DNA of 20,000 nucleotides from Rhizaria sp. SCN 62-66 (GCA_001724265.1 MEDY01000284.1:57948-77947), one strand, 5' to 3'. Counted from the stretch's first letter, positions 1 through 20,000 are shown. Program-made: numbers and translations. The notes: a model not told the origin generated them from the letters alone.

Positions 1-227
1 CGCGTCGCGACGGCGCGCGGCGTCTTCGCGCTCCTTGCGGAAGGCCAGAAATCGCTCTGCGGCCGCAAATTGCGCCACGAACTCGGCGAACACGGCGAAG
101 AACTGCGGCCACGACAGCACCGCGGGCGCGCCCAGCGACGCGGCGGCCGAGGCGGAGAGGCAGCCTGCGCGCGCAGGCAGCACGGGCACAGCCGCCCACG
201 CGGCCGCCAGTCCGCTCCCAGCGCCCG

Positions 228-258
<31 letters not shown>

Positions 259-3200
259 GTGGAAGCGCGCAACGGCGTCCGCGGCGGTGGCGGCGTCGGG
301 GACAACCGATGCAGCGACGCCGAAGAAGGCCATCGCGTCGGCGGCGACGGCGACGGCGGCGTGGAGCTGCGCGGCCGTCTCGTGGTACAGCGCCGCAGTG
401 ACCGCGGCGCGCGCGTGCAGCTGCAGCAGCGCGCGCTCGCCCGCGGCGTCGGCGGGCGCGCGGCGGAGCACCGTGGCCGCGGTGCGCAACACGGCCTCGA
501 TCTGCGCGAGTTCGGAGAAAATGGGCTCGCAGTCGGCCTTGGCGGCGTCGGCGAGCGCGGCCGTGTCGTGGATGAAGGCCACGCACTCTGGCCGGTTCTG
601 GTGCAGAAACGTGACCAGGTAGTGCAGCAGGGTCGTGCCGCCGCCGGAGATGCCGCCAGCGGAGCGGGTGTCGCCTGTACGGACACGCGTGATACATGAG
701 TAAGAAAGCAAGATGAGCAATAAAAAACAAAAGTTTTCGAAAAATATTAGAATTTCATCGCAACAAAGTTAAAATGCGTCATATGAGTTCAATCTGCGCT
801 GAGTATAGGAGATTTGTCGTACCGAGCTTCGTGAGGGTGGAGATGTGGAACGCCACGGCGGCGGGCTGGTCAGCGTTCATAAAATTGCCAAAGCGCAGAA
901 TGACGTGCAGAATGGTCCGCAGGTGCTGCGACGTCACCAGCGCCTCGCACGCGCGCACCGCGGCCGCCACGCGCGCCTGCATGCCGCGCAGCGCCGTCTC
1001 GGCGGCCTCGGCGTGCAGCGCGGTGGCGAGCTGCAGCCGCGTCTTGAGCAGCGGCGCGGCGCCCACCAGCGCGAAGACTTCCTCGGCAAAACCCAGCACG
1101 TGCGAGCGCGTGGCTGCCACCGCCTCGCGCCGCGCGGCCAGTCCGGCAGCCTCGCCTGCGGCCGCTGCATCGTCATCGCTAGGCAGCAGCCGCAGCAAGC
1201 GCTCGCGCATGCGCGCGCAGTCGGCCTCGGTGCGCCTGGCTAGCGTCGCAATGGCCTCGATCTCGTCCTGCGAGGGCGCGTGGCGGGCCAGACACTCCAG
1301 CGCGGCGTAGGGCAGCGCCGCGGCATCGGCGGCGGCGACCGCGGCGGCGAGCGCGGGCAGCGGCAGGCGCGCGGCGCGGAGCACGATCTCGAGCTGTCGA
1401 GCGCGGTCCGCGGCCAGCGCGGTCGCGGTCACGCGGGCAGACGGCGCGCGCGCGGCGGCCAGCGCGGCGTCGAACGCAGCGAACACGGCCGGGCCTTGAC
1501 TGGCCGCGCCGTCACTGTTGTTGTTGCCGCTGCTAGAGCTCTTGTTGTGAGAGGATTTGATGGGCATGGCGGAAAATGTGCGCGCAAACTCGGCCTCATC
1601 AAACGGCAGCGCGGCGGCCTCCGAGCCGGACCAAATGGAGCGCCCCGCGCCACGTGCGCGCGCCGTGGCCGTCACAGGTGACTGGGAGCGCGAGCGCGAG
1701 CGCGCGTTGAGCGCTGCGTGCTCGGCGTCGAGCCGCTGCCAGTGCAAGCGCTTCACACGGGGGCCTGTGCGCGCGGCGGCGGCGACGAGCACGGGCTTGG
1801 CTGCCGCCTTGCCACAGTCGCCGTCGTTGCCATCTTCGTCGTCGAAGAGACCGGGCGGCGCGGGCGGCGGCGCGGCCGTATTGCCCGACAGGAAATCGCC
1901 GAAAAGGTCTTCCGGCGGGGGCGGGGGCGCGCTGCCACAGCCGCTATCGCGCTCTCCCCTGCTAGGAGCGAGGTCGTCAAGCAGGCCAGCTGGCGCGGGC
2001 GGCGGCGGCGGCGGAGCGGTCGCAGCCAGCTCAGGGGCGGCGTTGCTCGCCACAGCGACTGCGCTGTTTACGGCTGAGACAGTGGCAAGCTGGCTCTTGG
2101 CGGCCGCAAGCATCGCTGCGACGGCGTCAGATGCTGCGCTGTCGACAGGGCTCACGCTTGAAGTCACACTGGCATTCGCGTTAACAGCGTCATCGTTGCT
2201 GGCGGCCGCAGCGTCAAAGAGCAGACTGAGCGGGTCCGTGACGTCCGACGCGGCGGCTTGACTTTGATCCCCCCGCGTCGGGCCCTTGCTGAGCACTGCG
2301 TCGGTCAGAACGGCATCAGTGAGCGCGGCGTCGTTGAGCGCAGCGGCGACGGCGCGCGCGACGGAACTGGCCACGCGTGCGGCGGCGCCCGGCGCAGCCA
2401 CGGCCCCGGGGGCAACGCCGCGCACGCGCACAACAAATGTGCCCGCGTCGGCCCCAGTCTCGGCCAGCACGGCCGCCGCAGCGGCCTCAGCCTCGGCGTC
2501 AGCCTCGTCGGTGCCAGTCAAGTTGAAGCCGCGCACTGCAGTGGCCGCAGCGGGGAGCGAGACGTCAACCACTGCACCGGCTCTAGCCACGGGACCAGTA
2601 CCGCTGACTGCCACGTGCTTGCGGCTGTGATCGCGGTCGCGGGGGCGATACGGTGTGGCGGGGCGGCCACGACCGCGCCTGTTCCCTGCCACAGCCCCGG
2701 ACGCGGTGGAGGGCTCGGTGACGGTGTTGCGGCCGCGGGGCGGTGTGGCGGCGCCCTCGCAGTCGGCGGCGTCGGAGCCGGGCGAGCAGTTGTGTTGTGC
2801 TGCGCGCGCGCTGTGGTGGTGGCTGTTACCACGAGCGAACCCTTGGCCATTGTGAGCCTGACCGTGAGCGTGAGCGTGACCGTTAGTGTTGATGTGGTTG
2901 TGGCCGTTGCTGTCGTTCTGAGTGAGAGTGCGCGCAGCGGCCCCGCGCGGAGGCGGCGTGCGCATGTGATTCGCGCCCGCGGAGGCCGCCGCCATTACCG
3001 CAGAGGCCGCGCTCGCAGCGCTTGTCAGTGTAGAGTGTGACGAGTGTGCAGCGCCAGCGACGGGGCCAGCGACGGGGCCCGCTGCTGTGGCGCCGCGGCA
3101 AGAGCGCGGGGCAGTGCGGGGCTGCTGTGGTGCGGGGGAGCCAAGCGCAGTGGGGGGCACGTGCGCGGGGCGGCGAGCGGCACCGTTGCGGCCAGCTGTA

Positions 3201-3635
3201 GCGCTGTTGGGGTTGTTGCGACGCGCGTGGGCATCGGCTCGGTACTGCGCCTCGAGGAACGCGAGCTCTTCTTGCGCAGACGGGGCTAGGCATGCAAAAA
3301 AACACAACGCAATACACACATGTTAGAGGTACTTTGTCATCGCAACATGCTAGCTTTGTTCTCTGGCTGATGATATAAGGACAAGCAGGGCGGAAGATAG
3401 TTCAGGACGTACCTTCGAAGAGAGGCTCGAAGAAGGAGAAGATCTTGGGGAGCAGTGAGGTCTGCAGCGGATCAGCGCGTGGCTCGCGAAACCGTGCGTT
3501 CACATCGGCGGGGTTGCGCACAGGCATCGGGGAATAGGTCGCGCGCGGGGCAACATACTGCTGTGGGCGCAGCAGAGCAGCATGCTCCACGCGGGGTCCA
3601 CCTTCGTACGCCTCTGTCGACGGATACGCACCCAT
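1..3635 (-). CDS. Formin (FH1/FH2 actin nucleator), 3'-partial; exons complement(3635..3413, 3285..823, 674..<1)
   Basis: FH2 hallmarks in order: RVKRLHWQRL and SIWS (lasso tryptophans), ARQLEIVL, ILRFGNFMN, then across the intron AFHISTLTKLG/DTRS...TTLLHYLV and FFAVFAEFVAQF. Short polyproline FH1 runs (PPPPPPAP, APPPPP, APPPAPP) lie just upstream. Both GT-AG introns splice in frame. The ATG at 3635 has an in-frame TAA just upstream; the start is less certain than the rest. Confidence 0.92.
675..822 (-). other. Spliceosomal intron (148 nt) in the formin FH2 domain
   Basis: Minus strand G|GTACGA...TACAG|GC, AT-rich; removal restores KLG-DTRS, matching the formin KLxDTKS motif. Confidence 0.9.
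3286..3412 (-). other. Spliceosomal intron (127 nt) in the formin 5' region
   Basis: Minus strand GAAG|GTACGT...TTTTTTTGCATGCCTAG|CC; joins ORF 3402..3641 to ORF 779..3319 in frame. Confidence 0.8.
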
Positions 3636-4076: not shown

Positions 4077-5016
4077 ATGTCCAACATGATCGACGACGAG
4101 GACTACGCCGGCTCTTACGAGCACGGCCAGGACCTGAACGCGGCCTACGCCGAGGGCGGCGAGTCGCTCGCGTCGCAGGAGTACGGCGGCATGCACGACA
4201 ACGACGCCACGGCCTCGGATGTCACTTTTGCGCCCCTGGGCGCGGCCGAGATGGACAAGGGCGTGGTTCACAACCTGCGCGTGCCGGTTCCGCTGCACCG
4301 CTTGACGCCGCTGCGCGACGCGTGGATGGACATCTACACGCCCATCGCGCAGCACATGAAGCTGCAGATCCGCTTCGACACTGCAAAACGCTTCATCGAG
4401 CTGCAGACGTGCGAGGAGACCGAGTCGCCTCACGCCATCACCAAGGCCGCCGACTTCTGCCGCGCCTTCGTGCTGGGCTTTGAGCTGCGTGACGCCATCG
4501 CGCTGCTGCGTCTGGACGACCTCTACATCGACACGTTCCACATCAAGGAAGTGCGCCAGGTGTCGACCGACGAGGAAGTGTCGCGCTCCATCGGCCGTAT
4601 CGCCGGCCACAACGGCAAGACCAAATTCACCATCGAGAACGCCACCAAGACGCGTATCGTGCTTAATGAGGGCCAGATCAACATCCTCGGGTACGTTAAT
4701 ATCCCATCTTACAGTCTCTTATTATAGTCTCAGTGCAAACAACAACGAGCTTCATCAGTACAAAGCAAATCTAAGTCACTTGATCACACAGCCTCCTATA
4801 TCTCGCATTCTCATGCATCTTAGCTCACATTCAATCGCTCTGTTCCATTCTGTCTCGATCGTGTTTTGTATTCTTTTGACCATCATACTTCACAGTTCGT
4901 ACAAGAACATCCGGTACGCCAAGGACGCCGTGGTGGCCCTTATCATTGGCTCGCCCCCCGGCAAGATCTTCACCCGCATGCGCAACGTCTCCACATACAC
5001 CAAGCAGCGCTTCTAA
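4077..5016 (+). CDS. PNO1: Pre-rRNA processing KH-domain protein PNO1/Dim2; exons 4077..4690, 4896..5016
   Basis: Characteristic sequence RVPVPLHRLTPLRDAWMDIYTPI...KAADFCRAFVLGFELRDAIALLRLDDLYIDTF...SRSIGRIAGHNGKTKFTIENATKTRIVL...ILG/SYKNIRYAKDAVVALIIGSPPGKIF...QRF; ends in TAA. Confidence 0.96.
4691..4895 (+). other. Spliceosomal intron (205 nt) in PNO1
   Basis: GG|GTACGT...CTTCACAG|TTCG; removal gives the conserved ILGSYKNI. Confidence 0.92.
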
Positions 5017-5718: not shown

Positions 5719-8237
5719 ATGCTATCGTCCTCTTCACCGGGCCACAGCGCGCTAAATGGTCAGGAGGCCCAAAACCACATTAGTTACTCTTCAGAAACGT
5801 ACGTCACTGTGATTCTTTTAGAGCGAAACACGTCTTTTTAGTTTGATTGACCAGGGCCCTTCGGCTCATATCCACTTGTGTGGCCCTTGCATCTTACCCC
5901 CGATCTCAGCTCCATCCATGCTATTTCCACTCAACCAAACGCTTTTCATTTCTTTCCTCCCCGTTTACACCTTCCGCAGCGACACCCATGACATTATAAT
6001 CCCGCATCTGTTCGCAAAGCTGACGCTCAACGTTCGCGAAGGCTTCGACCTGCAGAGCTCCCCACAGCATGACCCGCGCCCGCTGCCGCCCAAGGCGCCG
6101 CTGGTGACCCCGCGCAACGGCACTACGGTGCTCGCCACGCGCGACGCGCCGCACAGCGCTGGGATGGGTCCTGCCCCCGGCACTTCCTATTCTGGCGGCC
6201 TTTTCCCCATGCACCACATGGACGCCTCCTCCGCCTCCGCGTCTGCCTCTGCGTCTGCGTCTGCGTCTGCGTCGGCGTCGTGCTCGTCGTCTGCGGCGTC
6301 GTCCTCGCTGGGCCACACGCGCAGCCTGTCGCGCTGCATGGCACCTGATCGCACCTTCGACGCGCCCCCGCCGCTGGCCGCGCTCGCTATTGCAGATACG
6401 CTGCTCATCGAGCCCGTCGCGCGCTCACGCCGCCCGCGCGAGAACGGCGGCACCACGCCCACGCCCACGGCCGCCGCTGCAGCCGCCGCCGCAGCCGCCG
6501 CCACGCTCGCCGCCGCCACCGCCGCGGCCGCCGCCGCGGCCGCCGCGAACGCGCCCGCCGGCTTGGGGGTCGGTTTCCCGCTGGGGCTGCCCCACGGGCC
6601 TCCGCGGCGCTGCCATACTTCGCACTCGAATGGCGCGGGCGGCGCGGGCGGCGGCGCACAGACGGTGGCGATGAGCGACTCGTACGCGCGCGCGGGTTCC
6701 GCGCTCGACAACCACCCGAACGCTGGTGGTAACATCAATGGCACGGGCGCTGGCGCGGGCGCGGGCGCGGTCTTCCCTGGCGCGCGCGGCGCCGCTGGCC
6801 CCTTCGGCCCCGGCTCTGGCGCAGGCACTGGCGTTGGCGCTGGCTCTGGCGCGAGCGGTAGCGCGGTGGCGCCTGTGCGGACTCTGGGCGTGCACGGCAC
6901 TCGCGGGGCGCGCGCCGGCAGCAACGGCTCCGCGTTCGAGGCTGGTCTTCCGCTCCCGCTCCCCAGCGGCGCGGTCGCCGGCGGACAGGGCGGCGCCGTT
7001 GCCGTTCCTCACGCCCACGGTCACGGTCACAGTCATCATCACCCCCACAGCCACGCGTCCCACCACCACCACAACCACCACCGAGGTGGCGCGGGCAGCG
7101 GCAGCAGCAGCAGTCTGAGCGACGACGACGACAGCGACGACAGCGACGCGGACCGGAGCAAGAACCGCGCCAACGAAGACAGCGACGATGACGACGAAGG
7201 CTACTACCGCCGTCAGCGCTCTGCTACGCAGCGTATGCTGCTGAGCTCGCACACGCACACGCCCGCGGCGTCGGCGTCGGCGTCTTCGCCCTCGCGCTCC
7301 CCCGCCACGGCCCCCGCCTCGGCCGCTGCCGCCGGCGTCTCCCAGCAACATCCACACGCGCAATCGCCGGCGCAGCTGTCGTGGCCGGCGCCGGTCCCCG
7401 CAGGCCCCGCGGGCGCGGGCGCGGTGTCGGCCGCGGTGATGCGCGCGGGCGACGACGACGACGTGTGCCTCGGCGCGCCGGCCCCGGTCCCCGTCACGCT
7501 CACGCCTTCGCTGTCGACGCGCGACCTGTACTTCCACAACATATCGGCCGCGTACCAGACCGCCGCGCTCACCTTGTCGCACGGCGCGTACGCGAGCTGC
7601 GCTGCCAGTACCGCCGGCAACGGCAACGGCAACGGCGGCGCCAGCTACGCGGCTGCGGGATGCGGCTACGGCGGCTACGGCGGCTACGGCCCAGTGCCTA
7701 CTGTGACAGCCAGCGGTGTGGTCACCAGCGGCAGCAGCAGTAGCAGCAGCATGCAGACGACGTGCATCGGCGCGTGTCCCATCCACGGCCCCGTCTCGCG
7801 CTTCGCCGCCGCGGGCCACGCGCACGCCGCGGCGGCCCGCGCGCCGTCGCCGCTGCTCAGCGCGTCCGCGCAGCAGCACTCGTTCTCTCAGTCGCACGCA
7901 CAGTCGTTCACGGCACAGGCACAGGCACAGGCACAGGCGCAGGCGCAGGCGCAGGGGCAGGGGCAGGGGCAGGGGCAGATGAGCTGCTTCGTGCACCCGA
8001 CGCCCGCCTCGGCGCTGGCCGCCGCGCACACCGCCGCGGCACAGGCCCGACTCGCCGCCGCAGCCGCGCTTGCCGCGCCAGTGAGCACCACGCCAGTGAG
8101 CACCGCGCCGATCAGCACTGCGCCGGTGAACTCTGCGCAGCAGATGCACGGCGCTCAGATGCTGTCTGTGCCGGCGCCCGGCAACAGCATGGACTTCGCA
8201 GACTTCAACAACAGCAACAGCGGTAACACCAGCGCCA

Positions 8238-8269
<32 letters not shown>

Positions 8270-11110
8270 GCGCCCACGGTGGGCGGCCGCGCGCGGTCCG
8301 CGTCTCTGGGTGTGGACTCAACGCTGCCCGCGGCCGCCGCGACCGCCGCTGCGACGGGGCAACACTCGCACTCGCACGCCCGCGCCGCTGGTCTGCCCCA
8401 GGCCCATGCCAGTGGGCTCTCCGCGGGCAACAGCGGCAGCAGCGGCAGCGGCGGGTTCGCTGCCGGCGGGTTCGCGGGGTTTGCGCACTCGTTCGGCGGC
8501 GCGCAGCCGCAAGCGCTGGCGCGGCAGCCGTCGTCCAGCAGCCTGGGCACCGCGCCCATGTCGGCCTCGTTCACCGGCGGCAGCAACAGCAATACCATGG
8601 GCGCGTACGCTGGGGCTGGGCTCAACTCGCCCCCGCGCGCCCCCTCGGCCCACGCCCACCATGGCCACAGCGGCCACAGCGGCCTCACAAGTCACGGCCA
8701 CGGTTATGCCCACGTTGTGAACCATAGTCACGGGACTGCTGCTGCGGCGGCGCTGCTGCCCCCGCAGCCCGCGTCGTCGGCGTCGTCGCACCGCACGCTG
8801 CCGGCCTCCAACAGCTTCTCCGCGGCGGCCTCGGCCTCGGCGGCGGCGGCGGCGGCGGCGGCCTTTGCGGCGGCCACCGCGGCGGGCGGCGCCGCGGGCG
8901 TAACGCCTCCGCCCGTCCACGACAGCAACTCGCAGGCGCAGTCGCAATCGAACGCGCAGTCGAACGCGCAGTCCGCCGCCAACACGCCCGCGTCTGCCGG
9001 CGCCGGCGCGTGGCAATGGCAGACCGCGCAGACGCAGTCGCTGCCGCCGGGCCCGCCCGTGCCGTCGCTGCACTCGCCGCTCTCGGTCCGCGCTTCGCCC
9101 CCCGCGGCCGCCCCCGCTGGCGCCGGGGCCGGCTGGATGGGACTTGGCGCCGGCGCCGCAGGTTCTGTGTACAGCACGACGTCTGTGAGTGTGGTGAGTA
9201 ACAACAATAACAGCAACAACGCGCCGTCTGCGACGCTGCTGCCGCCGCGACCTATGGCCTTCACGCCCTCGGCCCCCGCGCCCGCGGCCAGCTTCACCGC
9301 TAGCGCCGTCAGCTCCAGCTCCAGCAGCGGCGGCGGTTTCGGTGGCGGTTTACTGGCGGCGCCTGTGCCTGTGCCGACTTTGAGCAACAACTCGACGCTA
9401 GGCGGCGTGAGCATGAGCTTTGCGGCCGCGCAGGCGCAGGCGCAGCAGTACCAGCAGTCGTACCAGCTCTACACACAGCAGCAGCAGCTACAGATGCAGC
9501 AGAACGCGCTGGCGTCCTACTCCTCCGCGGCCGCCGCCGCCGCGGCCGCGGCCGCGGTCTTCGGTCCCGACTGTCAGTGTCCGTGTCTGTGCGCGCAGCT
9601 GCTCACCGCACACACGGCCGTGTCGGCCGCCAACGCCGCCGCCGCTGCCGCCGCGCTCGCCGCGGGTCGCGCCGCGACGCCGCTGTCGGTGCTCTCGGAG
9701 CGCCATTCCCCCGCGCCCGCCGCCGGCGTGTTTGCCGCTGGCTCTGCGCACGGCATCGGCGCTGAGACGCCCCGGTCGCTGCTCAGTCTGCTGTCGCCTG
9801 CGGCTTCGGCGCAGCACTCGCCCGCGGCGGAGCCCGCGGTGCCGCCCGCGGCGTCGGCCGCGGCGCTGATGCTCGCACTGCCGTCCTCTTCGTCGTCGTC
9901 GTCGGTGTCGCCGGCGGCCGGCGGGCTGATGATGCTGTCTGCGCCCGCGCTGTCGACGTCGTTGTCGGCGTCGTCGCTCTCGCCGAGCGGGCTATCGCTC
10001 TCTGGCACCGGCGCCGGCGCCGTGATGCACCAGCAGCACCAGCAGCACCAACAGCTACAGCTGCAACAGCAACAGCAGCAGCAGAGCCCGTTGCAGCAGC
10101 AGGCGCTGGCGCACACGTTCTCGGCCTCGGGCTTCAGCCACAGCTCTAGCTCCGGCTTCGGCTCCGGCTTTGGCTTCGGTCTCACGCCCAGCTCTTCGCC
10201 CACCAACGCTAATCCCAGTACCAGCGCCAGCGCCAGTGCCAGTGCCAGCGGGGCGTACGGTGCGAGCGGCGTGAGTGGAGTGAGCAGCAGCAATGTGGGG
10301 TTCAAGTCGTTCGCGTCGCTGCAAGTGCCCGCGACTGCGCAGGCGCAGGCGTATGGCCACGGCTTCCAGACCCAGCTTCAGGCTCAACAGGCTCAGGCCC
10401 AGGCACAGGCCCAGGCGCAGGCGCAGGCGCAGGCTCAGGCGCAGGCTCAGGCGCAGCAGACGCCGACGTTGCCGCAGTCGCATCTGCTTCTCCCGCATGC
10501 GACCGTGCCCGTGACCGGCACGCGCAATTCTTTCTCCTCGCTGTCGTCGTCCTCGGGCTCGTCGACCTCGGCCGGCTCCGGCTCGGGCTCCGCGCTGCCG
10601 CTGTCGCTCGACTGGCGCTCGCTGGGCGCGACCACGCTCTCGCTGGCCGAGTCCTCGGCCGCGTCGCGCGTCGGCAGCGCAGGCGTCCCCAGCAGCGCCG
10701 CCGCCGCGCCCGGCCTTCAGCACGCGCATGCGCATGCGCACCCGCACGCACACGCACACGCGACCGCCAGCAGCAGCGCGGCGGCTGCGGCGGCGTCTGC
10801 GGCCGCGGGCGGCGGGCACATGGGCGACGAGTGCGTTGCCGGACTGGATATCGTGGTGCACGGAGACGATCAGTGCGACGCGCACGGCGTCCAGTGCGTT
10901 AGCCACGACCACAGCCACGGGCACAGCCACGGGCACAGCCACGGGCATGGGCACGGGCATGGACGCCATGCGAGTGCGCGGTTCGGCTGTGGCGAAGACT
11001 CCATGCGCGTGTGCAGCGGATGCGGCGAGCCGTGCGGCGACGAGGCGCACTCGTCCGCCGACTGCACGCCCCAGCCCGTCACGCGCCGTCTCGGATCACA
11101 GCCCATCTAA
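5719..11110 (+). CDS. Hypothetical ~1736-aa low-complexity (Ala/Ser/Gly/Gln/His-rich), probably disordered protein; exons 5719..5798, 5980..11110
   Basis: 5.1-kb uninterrupted frame with GC-rich third positions, ending TAA with an abrupt drop in GC. A short first exon (MLSSSSPGHS...SSET) splices in frame via AC|GTACGT...CCGCAG|C. No recognisable family domain. Confidence 0.75.
5799..5979 (+). other. Spliceosomal intron (181 nt) in the low-complexity protein gene
   Basis: GTACGT donor, pyrimidine tract, CCGCAG acceptor, phase 2 on both sides. Confidence 0.75.
6233..6280 (+). repeat. Coding hexamer repeat (GCNTCN)n encoding (Ala-Ser)n
   Basis: gcctcc gcgtct gcctct gcgtct gcgtct... read directly. 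Confidence 0.85.
7913..7978 (+). repeat. Coding hexamer repeat, 11 units: (GCRCAG)7(GGGCAG)4 encoding (AQ)7(GQ)4
   Basis: Read directly from the sequence. Confidence 0.9.
10391..10456 (+). repeat. Coding hexamer repeat (GCNCAG)11 encoding (AQ)11
   Basis: Read directly; synonymous variation between units. Confidence 0.9.
10910..10963 (+). repeat. Coding repeat (CACAGCCACGGG)3 plus HG dipeptides; His-rich tract
   Basis: Encodes HSHGHSHGHSHGHGHGHG. Confidence 0.85.
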
Positions 11111-13702
11111 GCCGCCGTCTAGGCTGTCATCGAGGCCGCCATCAACGCCTGCCAATGTTTACTCCCCGGTTTCGTCTTTCATAATTTCCGCAACATATGC
11201 GCTGTGTGTGAACATGAGCTTCTTGTGTCGTAGCTCATATAACAACATGACCCTCTATCTCTTCTAACCAATCACTCCAGAATAACAACGATATCTTTTG
11301 ATTGCCGTCTTTTTCCTTTCTCTTCTGCATGTTCTGTTTATGTGCTCTTTGATACTGTTTACTTTGTTTCATATTTTTCGTCGTCTTCATAGCGATTACA
11401 GTTTACCCAGTTGGAACTTTTCTTGCGCTTTTTGCTTTAAAGAGCAACAGCGCGTTACTTCTGTCTGGTCTGCTTTTGCTTGCCTTCTATATTTTCTTTG
11501 ACCCCTCAATCCCTCACCCCTTATTTATGCGTTTACGCTCCCTGTTTCCGTCTCCTATTTCTCAATCATCATTTCTCATCATCATGTAACAACCGCCGCT
11601 GTCACTGTGTCTAACTCTCATCGTAGCTGTCACTGCAACAGTAATAACGATAATCTTCTTATCCATAGCAAACGTCACATGCTCTTGTGGTCAAAACCCA
11701 TTCACTACATGCGACTTTCTTTGGATATCTCTGTACAAACCCAAACAAAACCCAAACGCAGTCACAGTTTTTGTCACTGGCACAGTCACAGCCACTAGGC
11801 TGGTCAGTTCCATCAACCCTATCGACTTGTTACCCTTTGTCACACACCCAATTTCGTTTCGTTACGCATTTCGTCTCGTTTCGTACCGTCGATTCATTCC
11901 ACACCAAAAATCACATCGCTCCCACTCTGTTCAGCTGAATCGTTCATCGATCACCAAACGTCCAGCCAGTGCACACACGCTTCTTGCCGCATCACACTGC
12001 GCCTTCTCTTGTTCTTGTGTACATGTATCAACAAACTTCTGAACCCGACCGCTCGCCTGGCTTCGCTGTCGCTCCCGTGTGCTTTGTTGTGTTCCGATGT
12101 GGTCTGCTGCTTGCGCGGCGAGACGCGTGCTGTGTCTTATAACTTTGTTTTTGTATTGTTTCTTCTCCTTCCCATTTTGTCTCTGTTTAGCTTAACTGTT
12201 TTCTTGCATCGTCCCCCACCAACGCACGCCTCTTCACCTCGGCTCGGTCATTGCGCCTCTGGCGCACTGCCCTGATTCAGACTCAGATTTCTGGACTATG
12301 ATTTCGTTTTACTCTCTCACAAATGTCTCTAGACAATTCAACACACTTCATAATGTTTTAATCTATTTTATTTTCATTTTTTTCTTCTTCAGCTCTTTTG
12401 ATGTCACACACGCACACACACAACAAACGTCTTGTGTACGACCAGCTCGCCTCTTTTCTTTTTATGTTCATTGACATTCATATGTTTTATTGTTTGTTGT
12501 TCTTTTAAGTTTGTTTTAATGGCGTTGAACTCGATTATACTCGCAACCTTAACACACGGCACCGCATCGCGCCGCACACCGTCACACATGTCCGCACGTG
12601 CTTTGTGACTGGCCTGCGCGCGCTGCCGCCATTCTTTCGCACTAGCCACTCGGCCACTACCCATGCTGTGCTGTTTCTGCACGTTTTCTGCGTTTTCTGT
12701 TCGCGTTGCCACGCTGCTTTCGCTGCCAGCATGCTCCAGCTTTCACTTCGCTTAATTTGTCATATTTTGAAGTTTTTTCTTTTTCCTTCTTTGTCGCTGT
12801 ATCTTTGTCCACTCTGCTTCTCACAAGCAGACTGCACATATACAATGTATCACCATCTCGTGTGGTCTCGTGTCGTCTCGCTATCTCTCCCCCATAGTCT
12901 CGATCTGATTTTCTCTTTCTCTCTCGCTGCTTCTTTCTCCCCGTGTCTCTCTGTTCCCATATCTTTGTTTCTCCAGTCTCCCCGCATGCATGTATTTGTC
13001 CCGTGTCTTGGTTTCTCCACACGATACGCTGTACACTGCAATAAACACTGTACGTGCGCGTGCGTGCGCTCACTCGCGCACGCACCCGCCCGCGCCCGCG
13101 CGTCGCCGTGTCCGCGCGCTGGCCGGCCAGTCTGCTCTGTTCTCGCTGCGTGAGTCGCAGGAGGGAGACTGCGCCGGCCCGCACGCACAACAAACACAGC
13201 ACGGCACACGCGTGTCTCGGTCCGCTCCGCTTTCGCTGTCTGCTGAATGCAGCGCGGCGGCGGAGCGGGCCGCTGCTGGGAGTGGTCTAGAGCCGCGTTC
13301 ATGCTCGCATGCACGCTCACAATCGCGTCAACACGTATTATTAAGACATGCGGAGTGTGTTGGCACATGTAGATTGATATGATTGCACCCCGACTTCGTT
13401 ATCTTCACACCGTCATTACTACCTATCCTCCTCCAAAACTCTCAAACTTATAATCCCAACAACGGTAAACTAATAATTAAAATACAACCTCAGCGTTATT
13501 CATCAATCAATCTTTAATTCAAAGTGCCTCCAGTGATCATGATCTAATCAGCGTCTTTGTATTGGTTGATTCTATTTCATTTTAGTCATTGATTCTGACT
13601 CGATTTAACCCCCATGTCATAAATGCTGTTCTATATCAACTTATCGCTGTCAGTGACAGCCGACAGCAGTCACTGCTATCACGATTGCAGTGCTACAGGA
13701 GC

Positions 13703-16700
13703 TCACCGCGGCGACTGCTCACTGCCGCTGCCGATGCTGTTGCCCGTGCCACGGCTGCCCATATCGCTATCCCTGCTGCCGCGCCGCAGCACCGACGCCC
13801 ACGATGTCGCAGGGCCAGCGTCGCCGCCGACACTCGCGCTTACACTGTCACACGCGCTCTCACTCTCGTCCTCGCGATCAGTGGCGTCGTCACTATCACT
13901 CTCGTTGTCGCTGTCCTGCGCACTACCACCGGTACTAAGCAGCGCGGATACGGCTTGATAGGCCACACTTGCCGCGACAGAGTCATAACTGTCGCCGTTG
14001 CTGCGCCCTAACACAGTGGTCGCGGCGCGGCTGCGTGTATTGATGTCGGCACTATCGCTGAAGGCGTTCTCTGCTTGCTTACCTGCGCTGGTGCAGAACT
14101 CGGCCAGTGACGGCACTGGCTAAAGTGACTGATGCGGCCTCGCATGGCCGGACTCCTTTGCCTGCACCTGTGTTAGTATGGGTTGTTGCGCTTGCGTCTG
14201 CGACCGCGACTGCGAGCTTGGTGTGAGCGTTAGCGTGATGACAGAGAACGCATCAGCACCCACGTCTCTCTGCGGGTTTGCGCTCTCCCGGATTCTTGTC
14301 GCTGTAGCGCCAAGTCCCCCCATGGCAGCGTTCACAGCAGCATCATCATTGCTGCCACTACCGTTGCGCTCACTATAGTCGCTGTGATGTGCGTTTTGGC
14401 GGTGCGCATTGGCGCTGACAGGCGGCGGCGTCACCAAAAATGGACTCGGCGTCGGCTCTAGCCCAGCGCTGGCGGTGCCCCGCTCTGCTCCACTGAGTCC
14501 TGCCGCAACGCTGGCCAGTCCGGCCTTAGCACTGCTCGCTGCGGTCACGACGGCCAGCCCGCGGCCCTGCGCGCGCATGCGCTGCAACGCCGCGCGCACA
14601 GGCGTTTGCGCCGTGTTGGCACCCGTGCCCACAAGTACGGCGGTGCTGGAGTCAAGCGCAAGCGCCAGCGCTGGCGGCGGCGCGGGCCCAGTCGTTGAGA
14701 CGTGTAGAGGTGGAGTGCCAGCGCCGCTGACGTTACTTAGCGCACGAGCCAGCGGCGGCAGGCGCGCTAGCGGTGGCGGCAACGGCACCTGCGGCGTTCC
14801 AGGGCGCTGCGGGAGCGCTTGCGGTGCTGGCTGCGTCCCGCTAGCAACCAATGCAGGCGAGCCCGGGACATGCAGCGACTGCGACTGGGACAGCAACGAC
14901 TGCGAGAGCGGTGACGTGAGCGTCGGCACAGGCGGCGGCGCGAGCGGCGGGAGCCAGTGATCATGGGCCGCTGCAGGTGGCAATAGCGTGGCAACGTTTT
15001 CTAGTGACGCCGATGGGGTTACAACGCCCACTGTTGCTGTAGCGCCGTTGTGGGCAGCTGCCATGGGCTGGTGCTGAGCAGCAATGTCAACGGCTGCAGA
15101 GGAGTAATCAAGCGCAGCCGTCGCCACTCCGGAGTTTTCGAGGCACTCGATCGTGGTCTCCGTGTCACGATTCGCAGCAACGGCTGCAGTGGATTTTATT
15201 GGGGACTGGGGCACCTAGATCTCAACGCGTCTATCTCTGGGACATGTCGCTGTGACGCCGTCCGCCAAGTCGTGCTTGCCGTCACCAGCATCAGTGCAGT
15301 TTGTAGCGGCCTTCTTACTCGAGTTGGCAGCGGGACTCGTGACGTCCGCGCTTGAGCTGCTACTATGACTGCTGCTTACCATGATCCATGCACCGGAGCT
15401 TGCCAACATGCTACCGCTTTTGCTGGCGCTGCTAGTGCCATTGTCGCTTTTAGCAGTAGCAACAACAGGACTGCTAATGCTTGCGTAACTGCCGCGGTTG
15501 TTGGCGTTGTTTCCTCCGGACCAATGTACTCCAGGGCTGCTTGTCGGGGCAACAGTCTAAGTTGCAGCAACGTTGGCGCCGACATCAGCGTTGGCACAAA
15601 CGTGACTTTCCTCCTCGTCGGCCTCAATTGCGACCGGCAGCACGTGCACCCATCCGGCGCTACCACCGTTACTCCCGCAACTGCCCTCAGCACTAGTGTC
15701 TGCCCGCGCAGTACTGGAAGCAGCCGTAAATGCGCCGTCGGAAGCCTTGCTGCCGCGCTGCCTGCCAGACCTTATACCTGCAATTGAGACCGAGGGCAGA
15801 GGCGCCAGCGCAAACGGCGACGCCGCGCCAAACACCGCAGCGTCGCAATTGCGCTCATCTATGCGTTCCACTTCAGGCGCGCGGCGCGGCGCCACAACGT
15901 CTCCCCAGCTCCGGCTGCGTGCGGCGGCCACGTCCACTGCAAGCCACACCGGCGCAGCCCGATAGCTATTGGCTCCGCCGTGCGCGCCGGGACCCTGACC
16001 GTAGCCCCTGTAGTCGTCGTTGCCATTGCCGCTGCTGGCGCGAGTTGACCGGGCAGCCGCGCTGGCGTCGGCGTCGTTGTCGTTGTCGCCATCTGCCTCG
16101 GCGTCATACTCAGCGCCGGACTCGCATCCGCTGCCGTGGCCTGCTGCAGCTGCCGCCGCAGCGGCGGCCGCCGCCGCCGCCGCCGCCGCAGTGACAGGCG
16201 CCGAGCGCGCGACGCGCTTGAGCACGAGCGCGCGCACCGCGGCGCTGCGCAGCGGCGTCGGCAGTCCGGCCGCGCCCCACGCGCCAACAGCCCTTGCACC
16301 GCCGTTGCTTGCGCCAGTAGTAGACTCCCATCCGCGAGGCGCGCGCTGTGCTGAACTCTTTGCATCGTCAGTGTTTCCGTCTGCGTCTGCGTCTGCATCA
16401 ACGTTGGCGGCGGCGGAGCAGGCATCTAAGCACTCGGCTGGCTGGTGGATGCGCAGGGGCCCACGCAGCATCCTAGCAACAAGCGCGGCGAGCGTCACCG
16501 GCAGCCAACGCGCCGCGGCGCCCAGCGCGGCCCTGCGCACGACAGCACGCACCGAGTCGCCCACGGTCACTTCGTCCTGCGAGGCTTCGAGCGCGCGCAC
16601 AATCGCACTGGCCGCGGCCGCGGGCGTCACGGGCCCCGTGCCAAGCGCCGCGCGGCGGGCTAGCGCGCCCGCGCGCAGTCGGGCCGCGGTGGCCACTGCG

Positions 16701-18269
16701 GCCGTCCGCGTGGCGAGACGGGAGAGCAGCGGCGTGCTGGGCGGGGGCGGCGCGGCGGCGGGCGCAGGGGGGTCTGGCGCGAGGCAGGAGCCCAGCAGCG
16801 GCGCGGCAAGCGTGACCACAGTTACACCCGCGTTGCACGCACTTACTGTCGCGTAGAAAGGCTCAAAGGCTCCCTCAGCCGGCGGCGCTGGCACGAGGTC
16901 GATCGGCTCGAGAGTTTTGCTTGAGCTCTGACTTGAAGCAGCGATGCCACTTGACGGGCTTGTCTGCAGCTGCCGCTGCGGCTGAAGAGTAACTGCAACC
17001 GTGCTTAACGCCATCATTGGCACGGTAGCTAACATGCTTGACCCACTGCTTGAGGTTGTCGTGCTAGGGCTTAAGCTTGACTTCAAAGCGCCACTATTTG
17101 TGTTCGCTGTGAGCGAGGGGTCGACCCAGGGCATCTCTGTGCGCACTGCGCGGGCGACAGCAAGCAGCGCAGAGTGCGCGACAATGGCGTCGCCAACGTA
17201 TGCGCCAGCGGCGGCCACGGCTGTGGCGGCGTCCGCGCGGCCCACCGCGGCGGCGAGCGCGTGCGCGTGCGCGTGTGCCTCGAGCAGCACTGGCAGGTTC
17301 GATACGTAGCAGAGCCGACCCTCGCCCTTTTCGCGCATCTCGGGCGCAAACGCGCGCGCCAGCCACAGCGCGCACTCCGCGCCGCGGTCCACAACGGCGC
17401 GCAGCACGTTGGTCGGCGTGTCCTCGAGCGCGGCAAGTCCCGACTGCAGAGGCGCGTGGATCACAGCGTACACAAAGCCGACTTCTTCGATCGCAGCCTG
17501 CGACGCGGCCGCCACTTGCGCGGGGTCTGCGCAGTCCACAACGGACGCAAAGAGCTATGCACTGCGGCCGCGCGACACCGCAGAGGCTTGCAGCTCTGAG
17601 ACAAGCGCGTGCAGCGCGGCCGAGTCACGTGACCAGAGCACCAGGCGCGCGCGGCGGCGCAACAGGCAGCGCGCCAGCGCCACGCCGAGCGGCGACGTCG
17701 CATCCTAAGTGAACAATACAGCACATAAAAAACAGTGTCCACATGAGATAGAGCGCTAGTTTTGAGCTCAAGTTCTAATAAGAACAACATGTATAAGAAA
17801 GTAGAGTAAGTCCAGGAGACGTACAGTTATTAAGACATTCCGTCGATTGAGGGATACGCGCGCAGGATGTTTGCGCGTAAGCAGTGTGTAAACACGCGCG
17901 ATAAAGCGCACAATAACAAAGACCAGGACTGTGCGGAGAACGATGCGGGAGCGCAGGACTCTGATAAGCAACGACAGGGCGTTCGTCACGCGCCTTGAGA
18001 AGGAAGTCAAGAAGATCAGCAGCCAAAGGTATTAGGAAATTCATCTGATTATATGTACCATTATGATCATACGTTGAAACTGCTGTACATTTTCTACTGA
18101 CGTACTGTTTGAGCGCTGCGATGAAGCTGAGAGGCGGGTTTGCCTCGAGGGGTGAGGCGGGAGTGAGCCCAGTAGCGGAGAGAGGGACTTGAATTGAGAA
18201 GAGACCGGACTTGTACAGCATGGCCTGCGTTTCCGACATAGACCGCAGCAGGGCAGTTGATAAGCTCAT
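13703..18269 (-). CDS. Membrane-anchored SDR-fold protein (HSD17B11/RDH10-like architecture, degenerate motifs) with a long disordered tail; exons complement(18269..18106, 17993..17825, 17704..13703); four in-frame TAG codons interpreted as sense
   Basis: Spliced N-terminus: hydrophobic segment, then SLNRRNVLIT/DATSPLGVALARCLLRRRARLVLWSRD...SA*LFASVVDCADPAQV...EEVGFVYAVIH...GRLCYVSN...SALLAVARAVRTEM...GVTVVTLAAP...VTPAAAASAIVRALE, which is the SDR secondary-structure order. Track ORFs 15557..17539, 15215..15409, 14120..15214 and 13703..14116 share one frame and are separated only by TAG. Ends TGA at 13705..13703; the exact 3' end is less certain. Confidence 0.75.
17705..17824 (-). other. Spliceosomal intron (120 nt) in the SDR-like gene
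   Basis: ACT|GTACGT...TTCACTTAG|GAT, phase 0, AT-rich; joins NVLIT to DATSPLG at the Rossmann beta1 loop. Confidence 0.85.
17994..18105 (-). other. Spliceosomal intron (112 nt) in the SDR-like gene
   Basis: CA|GTACGT...CCTAAT...pyrimidine tract...CTCAAG|G, phase 2 on both sides; removes an in-frame TAA. Confidence 0.75.
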
Positions 18270-19550
18270 AGTAGCAGGCTGAGGCGCAACGTTTTGCGCG
18301 AGATATCAATGCTGCTAGCGGTGGCGGAAGTGATAGCAACAAGCTCACCTCTCAATAGTTTGTCTGAGGTTTAGTGCAGGTAGATGCGCGGAGAGAAACG
18401 TTTCGTAAATGAAAAAGTTGGACTACTAAACACTATGCCGGATTACTAAATGGTGAGTCTATTCTACGAATAGATGGGGTACAGCTAACTTAGACAATTC
18501 ATACCATCGTTGGACCCACCAATTGATTCGAGCCAGCTCCACTGCCCCTCCCCGAGCTCACGGTCATCAAAGCCACTATGCAAGCAGCTATATTGGTCCT
18601 GAACATAGTGCTAGCAAACGTTACTTGTTTTAACATTCAATTCACTGTCACAGATGTGCATTTGTATCTTTAAAGTGTTCGACACACAATAAATCAGTAA
18701 ACTTCAAGTCGTTGTTTAAGTTCAGAGTCACGAACTCAATGACTCTACGGGGTAAAAAATCGCACCACATAAAGCGATGCCTTATAAATACGCGTACCAC
18801 ATAAGAGAATGCAACATTAGCATCAATAATATCGATGCCATGCTCATGGACAGCTTGACAGGGGTTGATTACGAGCTACTATAGATGATCGAGATCACAT
18901 CAACCAGTGCGAATCACAGCAAGGGCGGCTTATATGACAACAAATTCTTTTAACGACATAGAAATCGACATATATTATATGAAACTAGCTTAACCTTAGC
19001 TCATGGTCGCTATAAAGGCAGCATATTTCTAAGTAAAGTGTCGTCTACCCCGAAAGTCCGCCTCCTTGAAGGAGCACAATCCATTCTATCGGACAATTAA
19101 AGAGAGATTGTGTCTGAAAGCAAATGCAAGTAACAAAAAAGATATAATACAATATACCTACTGCAATATACTAATTTGATCCCATTTATGTGATGTGATA
19201 TGCGTGTATTCAATGAGATTTTGTAGACGAGAGAACGGTTCCGAAAAAAGGAACAGCAAGCCAGGTTTTTGCGGGGGTCGAGCCAAGCAACTCTGATTTT
19301 CATGGTTTCTTTCATATTTCATCGCTGTTTGAGCGTCAATCATAGTTATCGTGATTCAAGACATCAGTTTGTCTATTTACTTTTTTTGGTGCTGGATATC
19401 ATTCAGAAGAGATCCTGCATTTTGCGTTCGGAACAACCACAGTGGACTCGTCGTCCTCTGCGGCGAAACCTGCTGCCACTTCTACTTCCGGCGCTCATTT
19501 CTTACATTTGATCTTTGATTTCTGTACATTTCTGGCCACACACAGACCCC
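18270..19550. promoter_or_regulatory. AT-rich divergent intergenic region between the SDR-like gene and aconitase
   Basis: About 1.3 kb low-GC, no credible ORF, between oppositely oriented starts. Confidence 0.4.
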
Positions 19551-20000
19551 ATGTTCCGTGCTACCGTTCGTGGTGCCCGTGCTGTCGGGAGCGCTCGCTC
19601 CTTCTCGACCAAGGTCCCCCTCTCCGTCCATGAGCCCACCTCGTACGTCCAGTACGACAAGATGGCCGAGAAGCTCGAGACGGTCAAGAAGCTCATGAAT
19701 CGCCCCCTGACGTACGCCGAGAAGGTTGTCTACGGCCACCTTGACAACCCCGCCGACGCCGCGACCATCAAGCGCGGCGAGTCGTACCTCAAGCTGCGCC
19801 CTGACCGCGTGGCGATGCAGGACGCGACCGCGCAGATGGCCGTGCTCCAGTTCATCTCCTCCGGCCTGCCCCAGACGGCCGTGCCCACCACGATCCACTG
19901 CGACCACCTTATCGAGGCCAAGGTTGAGGGCAAGACTGACCTCGACGTCGCCAAGGACAAGAACAAGGAGGTCTACGACTTCCTCGCCTCCGCTGGTGCC
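19551..20000 (+). CDS. ACO2: Mitochondrial aconitate hydratase, 5' part (runs off the window; absent from the ORF track)
   Basis: Translates [21 protein letters not shown] (Arg-rich, acid-free presequence)...[18 protein letters not shown]...[51 protein letters not shown]...[13 protein letters not shown], the mitochondrial aconitase signature. Confidence 0.97.

Follow-up and report, generated by a model that had tools for sequence, protein, structure and literature searches.

Four in-frame TAG codons in an orphan gene of a GC-rich wastewater eukaryote: a recently disabled gene or a changed genetic code?

We analysed a 20,000-nt stretch of DNA assigned to Rhizaria sp. SCN 62-66 (GCA_001724265.1, MEDY01000284.1:57948-77947; hereafter the window), in which a three-exon gene on the minus strand carries four TAG codons in frame within its 4,002-nt third exon. 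A sequence-only reading of the window had proposed that UAG is decoded here as an amino acid, most simply Gln, while UAA and UGA remain stops. We favour another account, to which we give a probability of about one in two: the organism uses the standard code, and the gene is a lineage-specific one that has recently been disabled or is no longer needed. A code change is not established by this single-gene observation, and the evidence points both ways. The gene is laid out as follows:

18106..18268, minus strand: exon 1, with the ATG at 18268-18266 as the probable start, placed by the open frame and the splice phase
17994..18105, minus strand: intron 1, 112 nt, GTACGT...CAAG, GC 0.37
17825..17993, minus strand: exon 2, hydrophobic anchor (VLVFVIVRFIARVYTLL) and start of the short-chain dehydrogenase/reductase (SDR) fold; the splice phase fits (CA|G)
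17705..17824, minus strand: intron 2, 120 nt, GTACGT...TTAG, GC 0.38
13703..17704, minus strand: exon 3, 1,333 codons and a terminal TGA, containing the four TAGs
17300..17698, minus strand: adh_short homology by Pfam match, residues 3-135 of exon 3
17555..17557, minus strand: TAG1, codon 50 of exon 3, within the SDR domain; bridged by contigs of runs X3, X5 and X7 without a difference
15557..15559, minus strand: TAG2, codon 716; bridged by the X3 contig 14773-16139
15215..15217, minus strand: TAG3, codon 830; bridged by X3, X4 and X5 contigs
14120..14122, minus strand: TAG4, codon 1195; bridged by X3, X4 and X5 contigs, with a 7-bp hairpin directly 3' of it
13703..13705, minus strand: terminal TGA of the frame, from translation and codon count
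12906..13475, minus strand: stretch 3' of the TGA covered by a contig from a polyA RNA library (X7), probably 3' untranslated region (UTR), without coding signal

The frame at 13703-17704 comprises 1,334 codons, terminator included; apart from the terminator, stops occur at codons 50, 716, 830 and 1195 and nowhere else. All four internal stops are TAG and the terminal stop is TGA; TAA and internal TGA do not occur. Because the five alternative frames of the same interval hold 29, 57, 31, 23 and 34 stops, this frame is open to an extent well beyond chance. Scoring by the codon usage of the window's other genes placed it (frame 0) first in 39 of 43 sliding 60-codon segments, including every segment after each TAG, and the remaining four narrowly favoured frame 2; exon 3 therefore contains no hidden frameshift. 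Retranslation and frame scoring thus bear out the description in the sequence-only reading: the positions of the four TAGs, their contexts (SA*LF, AT*TV, EI*VPQ and QSL*PV, with the asterisk for TAG), the lack of any TAA, TGA or frameshift, and the terminators of three genes, which are TAA in PNO1 (5014-5016), TAA in a large open reading frame (ORF; 11108-11110) and TGA here.

The four TAGs are present in the DNA itself. Contigs of run X3, from a wastewater study independent of the window's probable source, span TAG1 to TAG4 with no other letter at any of them; those of run X5 span TAG1, TAG3 and TAG4, and those of run X4 span TAG3 and TAG4. Since contigs from independent studies reproduce the TAGs without difference, they are not assembly errors. 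The comparison of contigs with the window covers the 32 aligned pieces listed, of more than 14,000, and 15 of 537 joints. Among these pieces the coding exons of the gene show no substitution between samples. One X3 contig has the sole length variant in the gene, a net loss of 3 nt at 16216-16218 within a GCG (poly-Ala) run; this is an in-frame length polymorphism between samples. Among 20 of 30 families of internal repeats, none near the TAGs pairs a TAG with a sense codon.

The gene is predicted to encode a membrane-anchored, SDR-like orphan protein with a low-complexity tail of about 1,000 residues. Splicing of intron 2 joins ...RNVLIT to DATSPLG and restores the glycine-rich start of an SDR, and both splice phases of the gene fit. 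Residues 3-135 of exon 3 match Pfam adh_short (PF00106; E = 1.1e-8, 35.2 bits against a cut-off of 26.6) with no break across TAG1, and the segment 3' of TAG1 by itself scores 0.96 for SDR in the Atlas features, its first hit being a cluster like hydroxysteroid 11-beta-dehydrogenase 1. The tail consists of Ala, Ser, Pro and Gly runs and has no Pfam match. Classical SDRs carry the cofactor and catalytic motifs TGxxxGxG, NNAG and YxxxK. In an alignment with 15 distant SDRs, the first has become TDATSPLG, with D for the first glycine, the second IHAPL, and no YxxxK is aligned. With these defining residues lost, the protein cannot be a working dehydrogenase. Like the membrane-anchored classical SDRs of the 11-beta-dehydrogenase-1 kind, it carries a hydrophobic anchor at the N-terminus ahead of a Rossmann-type SDR fold; unlike them, it has not kept the glycine-rich, NNAG and YxxxK motifs, and its long low-complexity tail has no counterpart among them.

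No orthologue of the gene was found. None of 8,000 scored candidates matched at full length. When the first 308 residues were searched exhaustively against 1.84 billion representatives, 57 hits came back, none of them an orthologue: 56 are distant SDRs at 25-36% identity, and the other is a 42-residue peptide that matches exactly the part of the gene ending at TAG1.

We propose that the gene, whose three exons specify an SDR-like protein with a membrane anchor, no catalytic capacity and a long tail, fell out of need and would then have acquired four point mutations, all to TAG, which its G-ending codons (CAG, GAG, TCG, TGG, AAG and TTG) reach more easily than any other stop. Two parts of this account are inferred: that translation ends at the TAGs, and that the mutations producing them are recent. 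On this proposal the gene would still be transcribed, with splice sites and frame intact, because its decay is young.

Four results count for a disabled gene under the standard code: the neighbouring genes are free of TAG, TAG makes up 51-58% of the nonsense changes open to the gene, the catalytic motifs have been lost and no orthologue was found. The four neighbours hold no in-frame TAG in 3,647 codons (aconitase 684, the large ORF 1,709, formin 1,050 and the PNO1 exon 204), against 4 in 1,333 codons of exon 3 (Fisher p = 0.005, on a tally of 3,660 codons). The aconitase and PNO1 are without TAG, unlike the conserved genes of Iotanema and exLh described in PMC5304391. A premature stop also lies inside a region homologous to a known family, as TAG1 falls within the adh_short match and the likeness to SDRs continues after it. 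The gene's codon bias is the weakest in the window, with a GC content at third codon positions (GC3) of 0.69 against 0.77-0.88 and an observed/expected TA ratio of 0.75 against 0.42-0.57; this too was counted in favour, but it is too large for a recent decay of a few percent and so is an old property and no sign of death.

Several further observations weigh against the same account. Neutral decay should leave mixed disablements, and neither a frameshift nor a TAA or TGA is seen. The start codon, both GTACGT donors, the acceptors and the splice phases are all intact, and a contig from the polyA RNA library (X7) carries TAG1 unspliced and without a difference. None of the terminators seen, in three genes only, is TAG (TAA, TAA and TGA). 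Moreover, the probability that neutral decay would yield four disablements that are all nonsense and all TAG is 4e-5 to 9e-3. The gene therefore resembles a unitary pseudogene in its premature stop within a homologous domain, its lost motifs, its lack of an orthologue, its weak codon bias and its normal neighbours, and differs from one in having no frameshift, TAA or TGA, in its intact splice sites, start and frame, and in its presence in a polyA RNA library.

How surprising four TAGs out of four are depends on the reference taken. The sequence-only reading had put the chance at about 1/81, with the three stops taken as equally likely, which proves too strong. Across the exon the minus-strand trinucleotides number 18 TAA, 32 TAG and 41 TGA, giving (32/91)^4 = 0.015. 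Among the single-base nonsense mutations open to the gene's codons, 51-58% yield TAG, so that four of four has p = 0.07-0.12. Nonsense changes are 2.3-2.5% of all point mutations in the gene, and four such hits therefore imply some 160-176 substitutions. Indels arise at ratios of 0.03-0.16 to substitutions; these are general values rather than ones from this organism, and the estimate of 4e-5 to 9e-3 given above uses them. If the gene is broken, the lesson for screens of genetic codes is that "only TAG" in one GC-rich gene is far weaker evidence than a naive 1/81 suggests, because TAG is the commonest nonsense outcome in GC-rich genes. Hypermutation of the repeat-induced point mutation type (C to T) was considered as a source of TAGs without indels and set aside, as (CpA+TpG)/(ApC+GpT) is 1.33 and thus not depleted.

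The foremost alternative, which we consider unlikely although well ahead of the others, is that UAG is sense, either fully reassigned or read by an efficient suppressor tRNA, with UAA and probably UGA remaining stops. The gene would then encode an intact protein of about 1,440 residues, and TAG would be rare genome-wide, gathering mainly in weakly expressed, fast-evolving genes. The absence of any stop but TAG from 1,333 codons, where the other frames hold 23-57 stops, speaks for this, as do the coding frame that continues unchanged after each TAG and the intact gene structure. TAG1 interrupts what is otherwise a continuous SDR domain, to which Pfam aligns straight across and whose remainder scores as SDR unaided. 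UAA is a stop in this organism, since the TAA of PNO1 lies at most 7 residues past the last KH match (Pfam positions 52-87 of 90 on residues 136-171 of 178); of the three terminators only this one is tied to conservation, and none is TAG. The low probability of the pattern under a pseudogene model, given above, works in the same direction.

What such a code would assign to UAG cannot be read off, because TAG1 is the sole alignable site, its column in the distant SDRs is polar and variable (K, R, E, Q, T, N and H), and the orphan has no conserved positions of its own. That column suits Gln better than Leu or Trp, weakly. If UAG were Gln, TAG would make up 4 of the gene's 45 Gln codons, close to the share of about 8% given for Iotanema in PMC5304391.

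The neighbouring genes count against UAG as sense. With UAG as a Gln codon used as in this gene, 6 to 14 TAGs would be expected among their 3,647 codons, depending on the scaling:

Same share of Gln codons: 13.8 expected, P(0) = 1e-6
Scaled to CAA use: 7.2 expected, P(0) = 7.5e-4
Scaled to the analogous first-position choice TTG/CTG: 6.2 expected, P(0) = 2e-3

About half of the large ORF's Gln codons lie in AQ/QQ repeats, which softens this expectation somewhat. In addition, the aconitases of relatives at 92% and 80% identity are called as uninterrupted 774-residue proteins, a tRNA scan found no tRNA gene within the window, and all the evidence comes from one orphan gene. Neither the window nor the metagenome contig L001, described below, contains eRF1.

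Codes of this kind exist. PMC5304391 describes UAG as sense with UAA and UGA as stops in Iotanema spirale (Gln) and in the sainouroid rhizarian exLh from a Lygus transcriptome (Leu), in agreement with the background on which the sequence-only reading drew, and PMC11687900 and PMC10553269 add ciliate cases of UAG reassignment. The gene resembles the Iotanema and exLh codes in that its in-frame stops are TAG only, that TAA terminates PNO1 and that no TAG terminator occurs among three genes. It differs in distribution: according to PMC5304391, conserved genes commonly carry in-frame UAGs in those organisms (204 across 126 Iotanema genes and 71 across 8 exLh genes), whereas here they sit in one orphan gene beside four neighbours without any. 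A UAG-only code in a non-ciliate has a very low prior; that paper describes two such cases.

The two leading accounts explain the data about equally badly, at roughly 1e-3 each. With likelihoods so similar, the prior decides, and it is higher for a single broken gene than for a UAG-only code outside ciliates; we therefore rank the standard code above UAG as sense. Should UAG be sense after all, the window would hold an independent and probably young origin of a UAG-only code, most simply with Gln and with UAA kept as a stop, in a GC-rich wastewater eukaryote; we put this forward as the less likely reading. It would be notable as a further origin, outside the ciliates, of an uncoupled UAG/UAA code, in a GC-rich lineage, and the reassignment would perhaps have been caught early, with the codon still scarce, which bears on the choice between ambiguous intermediate and codon capture. 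Such an early stage, in which a new sense codon is confined to weakly expressed, fast-evolving genes, has hardly been observed. Either account belongs to a known kind, and if the gene is broken the finding is an ordinary one.

A third possibility, which we regard as improbable, is that the TAGs are recoded in this transcript only, by adenosine-to-inosine (A-to-I) editing of UAG to UGG (Trp) or by programmed read-through, in a genome with the standard code. Where such editing operates in filamentous ascomycetes, a few genes carry an in-frame UAG, their frames are otherwise intact and the remaining genome is normal; the gene-specific pattern here matches this. A stable hairpin also follows TAG4 directly (14091-14120, minus strand), a 7-bp GC-rich stem (GCCAGUG/CACUGGC) with z = -2.64 for the 61-nt fold; 3 of 200 shuffled sequences folded as stably. 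However, fold scoring found nothing similar at TAG1, TAG2 or TAG3 (z = -0.87, -0.26 and +1.75), so the folds are inconsistent, and read-through at four successive stops would yield hardly any full-length protein. The RNA-library contig reads TAG at TAG1 with no other letter, though contigs drop minor variants. Nor is the organism a filamentous ascomycete: its nearest named PNO1 proteins, at about 50-57% identity, and its nearest named aconitase, at 71%, are not ascomycete-specific. Restorative A-to-I editing of premature UAG in mRNA is described for Fusarium graminearum and other filamentous ascomycetes in PMC4817773, PMC10776026 and PMC11156358; our gene shares with these cases the gene-specific in-frame UAGs, the otherwise intact frame and the standard code elsewhere, and differs in its lineage, in having no consistent hairpin-loop context and in an RNA-library contig that is unedited at TAG1.

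Less probable again is that the TAGs lie in unrecognised introns, each ending in ...TAG, or that the 4-kb exon comprises several coding units. Introns end in YAG, which would account for TAG-only stops; a GTACAT occurs in phase at 15529, 315 nt before TAG3 ends, and within exon 3 GC is lowest between TAG2 and TAG3. The recognised introns look different. All five (4691-4895, 5799-5979, 17705-17824, 17994-18105 and, on the minus strand, ~675-822) are 112-205 nt long and begin with GTACGT in four cases and GTACGA in one, and the two that were measured have a GC of 0.37-0.38 against 0.64-0.73 in exons. No 90-nt stretch of exon 3 falls below GC 0.49, and TAG1, TAG2 and TAG4 have no GTACG donor upstream of them. 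At TAG1 the Pfam match runs on ungapped and the X7 contig crosses unspliced. That four introns should all be multiples of three in length, in phase and free of other stops is unlikely in itself. Sequencing or assembly error, finally, is refuted by the X3, X4 and X5 contigs of other studies, and we found no support for it.

Transcript evidence comes from the X7 contigs. A public polyA metatranscriptome contains parts of the three-exon gene. The contig over TAG1 includes 14 nt of intron 2, and may for this reason be pre-mRNA or DNA carry-over. Among the aligned pieces listed, no RNA contig covers TAG2 to TAG4, and splice joints there may exist beyond those listed. X7 depth is nil in bins 11340-12006 and 18677-19343 and 0.09 in 18010-18676, as would fit true RNA, although contig depth cannot rank genes and an uncovered part is no finding. 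The X7 contig at 12906-13475 sits 230-800 nt downstream of the gene's TGA; its ORFs have flat GC by codon position and no Pfam match, and it represents a long 3' UTR or else a non-coding transcript of its own.

The other genes of the window are:

1-3319, minus strand: formin, one intron (~675-822)
4077-4690 and 4896-5016: PNO1, ending in TAA
5719-5798 and 5980-11110, plus strand: large low-complexity ORF, ending in TAA
From 19551: start of the mitochondrial aconitase

The product of the large two-exon ORF, about 1,730 residues with no Pfam match, has long AS, AQ, GN and poly-Ala repeats and a His/Gly/Ser-rich C-terminus containing Cys (HGHSHGHSHGHGHGHG...CSGCGEPC). The aconitase is extended to 684 uninterrupted codons by a 4,607-bp metagenome contig (L001) that is 100% identical to the window and is one contig of the same organism among the matches listed in a metagenome scan (at least 588 pattern matches, probably swollen by a low-complexity pattern). 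Antisense to the aconitase, at L001 3-2123 (+), lies an open frame of 706 codons. It shows that frames of such length occur by chance opposite GC3-rich genes in this organism, so that length by itself is no sign of coding.

The window recurs in nine further runs from six studies (2015-2025), sampled from wastewater, activated sludge and bioreactors, with one run unlabelled and one from a microbial fuel cell. In a count of eight other runs, seven carry a wastewater or bioreactor label, and these come from four studies (2016-2025). X3, X4 and X5, from three studies, were checked by aligning their contigs to the window. In X3, X4, X5 and X7 contigs, clusters of differences, mostly multiples of three bases apart, occur in PNO1 (4382-4568) and the aconitase (19583-19826); they point to one or more related species in the same samples, which matches the aconitases at 92% and at 80-82% identity. 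The nearest aconitases, from metagenome or EukProt proteins, are 92, 82, 80 and 79% identical, and no named one exceeds 71%. Fonticula, various fungi, Capsaspora, Salpingoeca, Arcella and some animals supply the nearest named PNO1 proteins. At these identities the lineage is an unsampled one, and the PNO1 matches give only a hint of an amorphean placement, possibly near fungi. A search with one exact 40-mer gave no match in the genome or viral contig collections, and an aconitase query against genome contigs returned 80 loci, all prokaryotic (mostly Bacteroidota, with Brachyspira and archaeal metagenome-assembled genomes), at 54-61% identity. An Rfam scan of the window gave no hit of any kind, and the window has no rRNA. 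A Rosculus-like (sainouroid) identity was considered, as exLh is a sainouroid and Rosculus abounds in sewage, but GC rules it out, at 37.7% for the Rosculus-like genome (PMC10770858) against 62.7% for the whole window. The strict GTACG donor consensus of the introns is unusual and could aid the binning of this organism's contigs.

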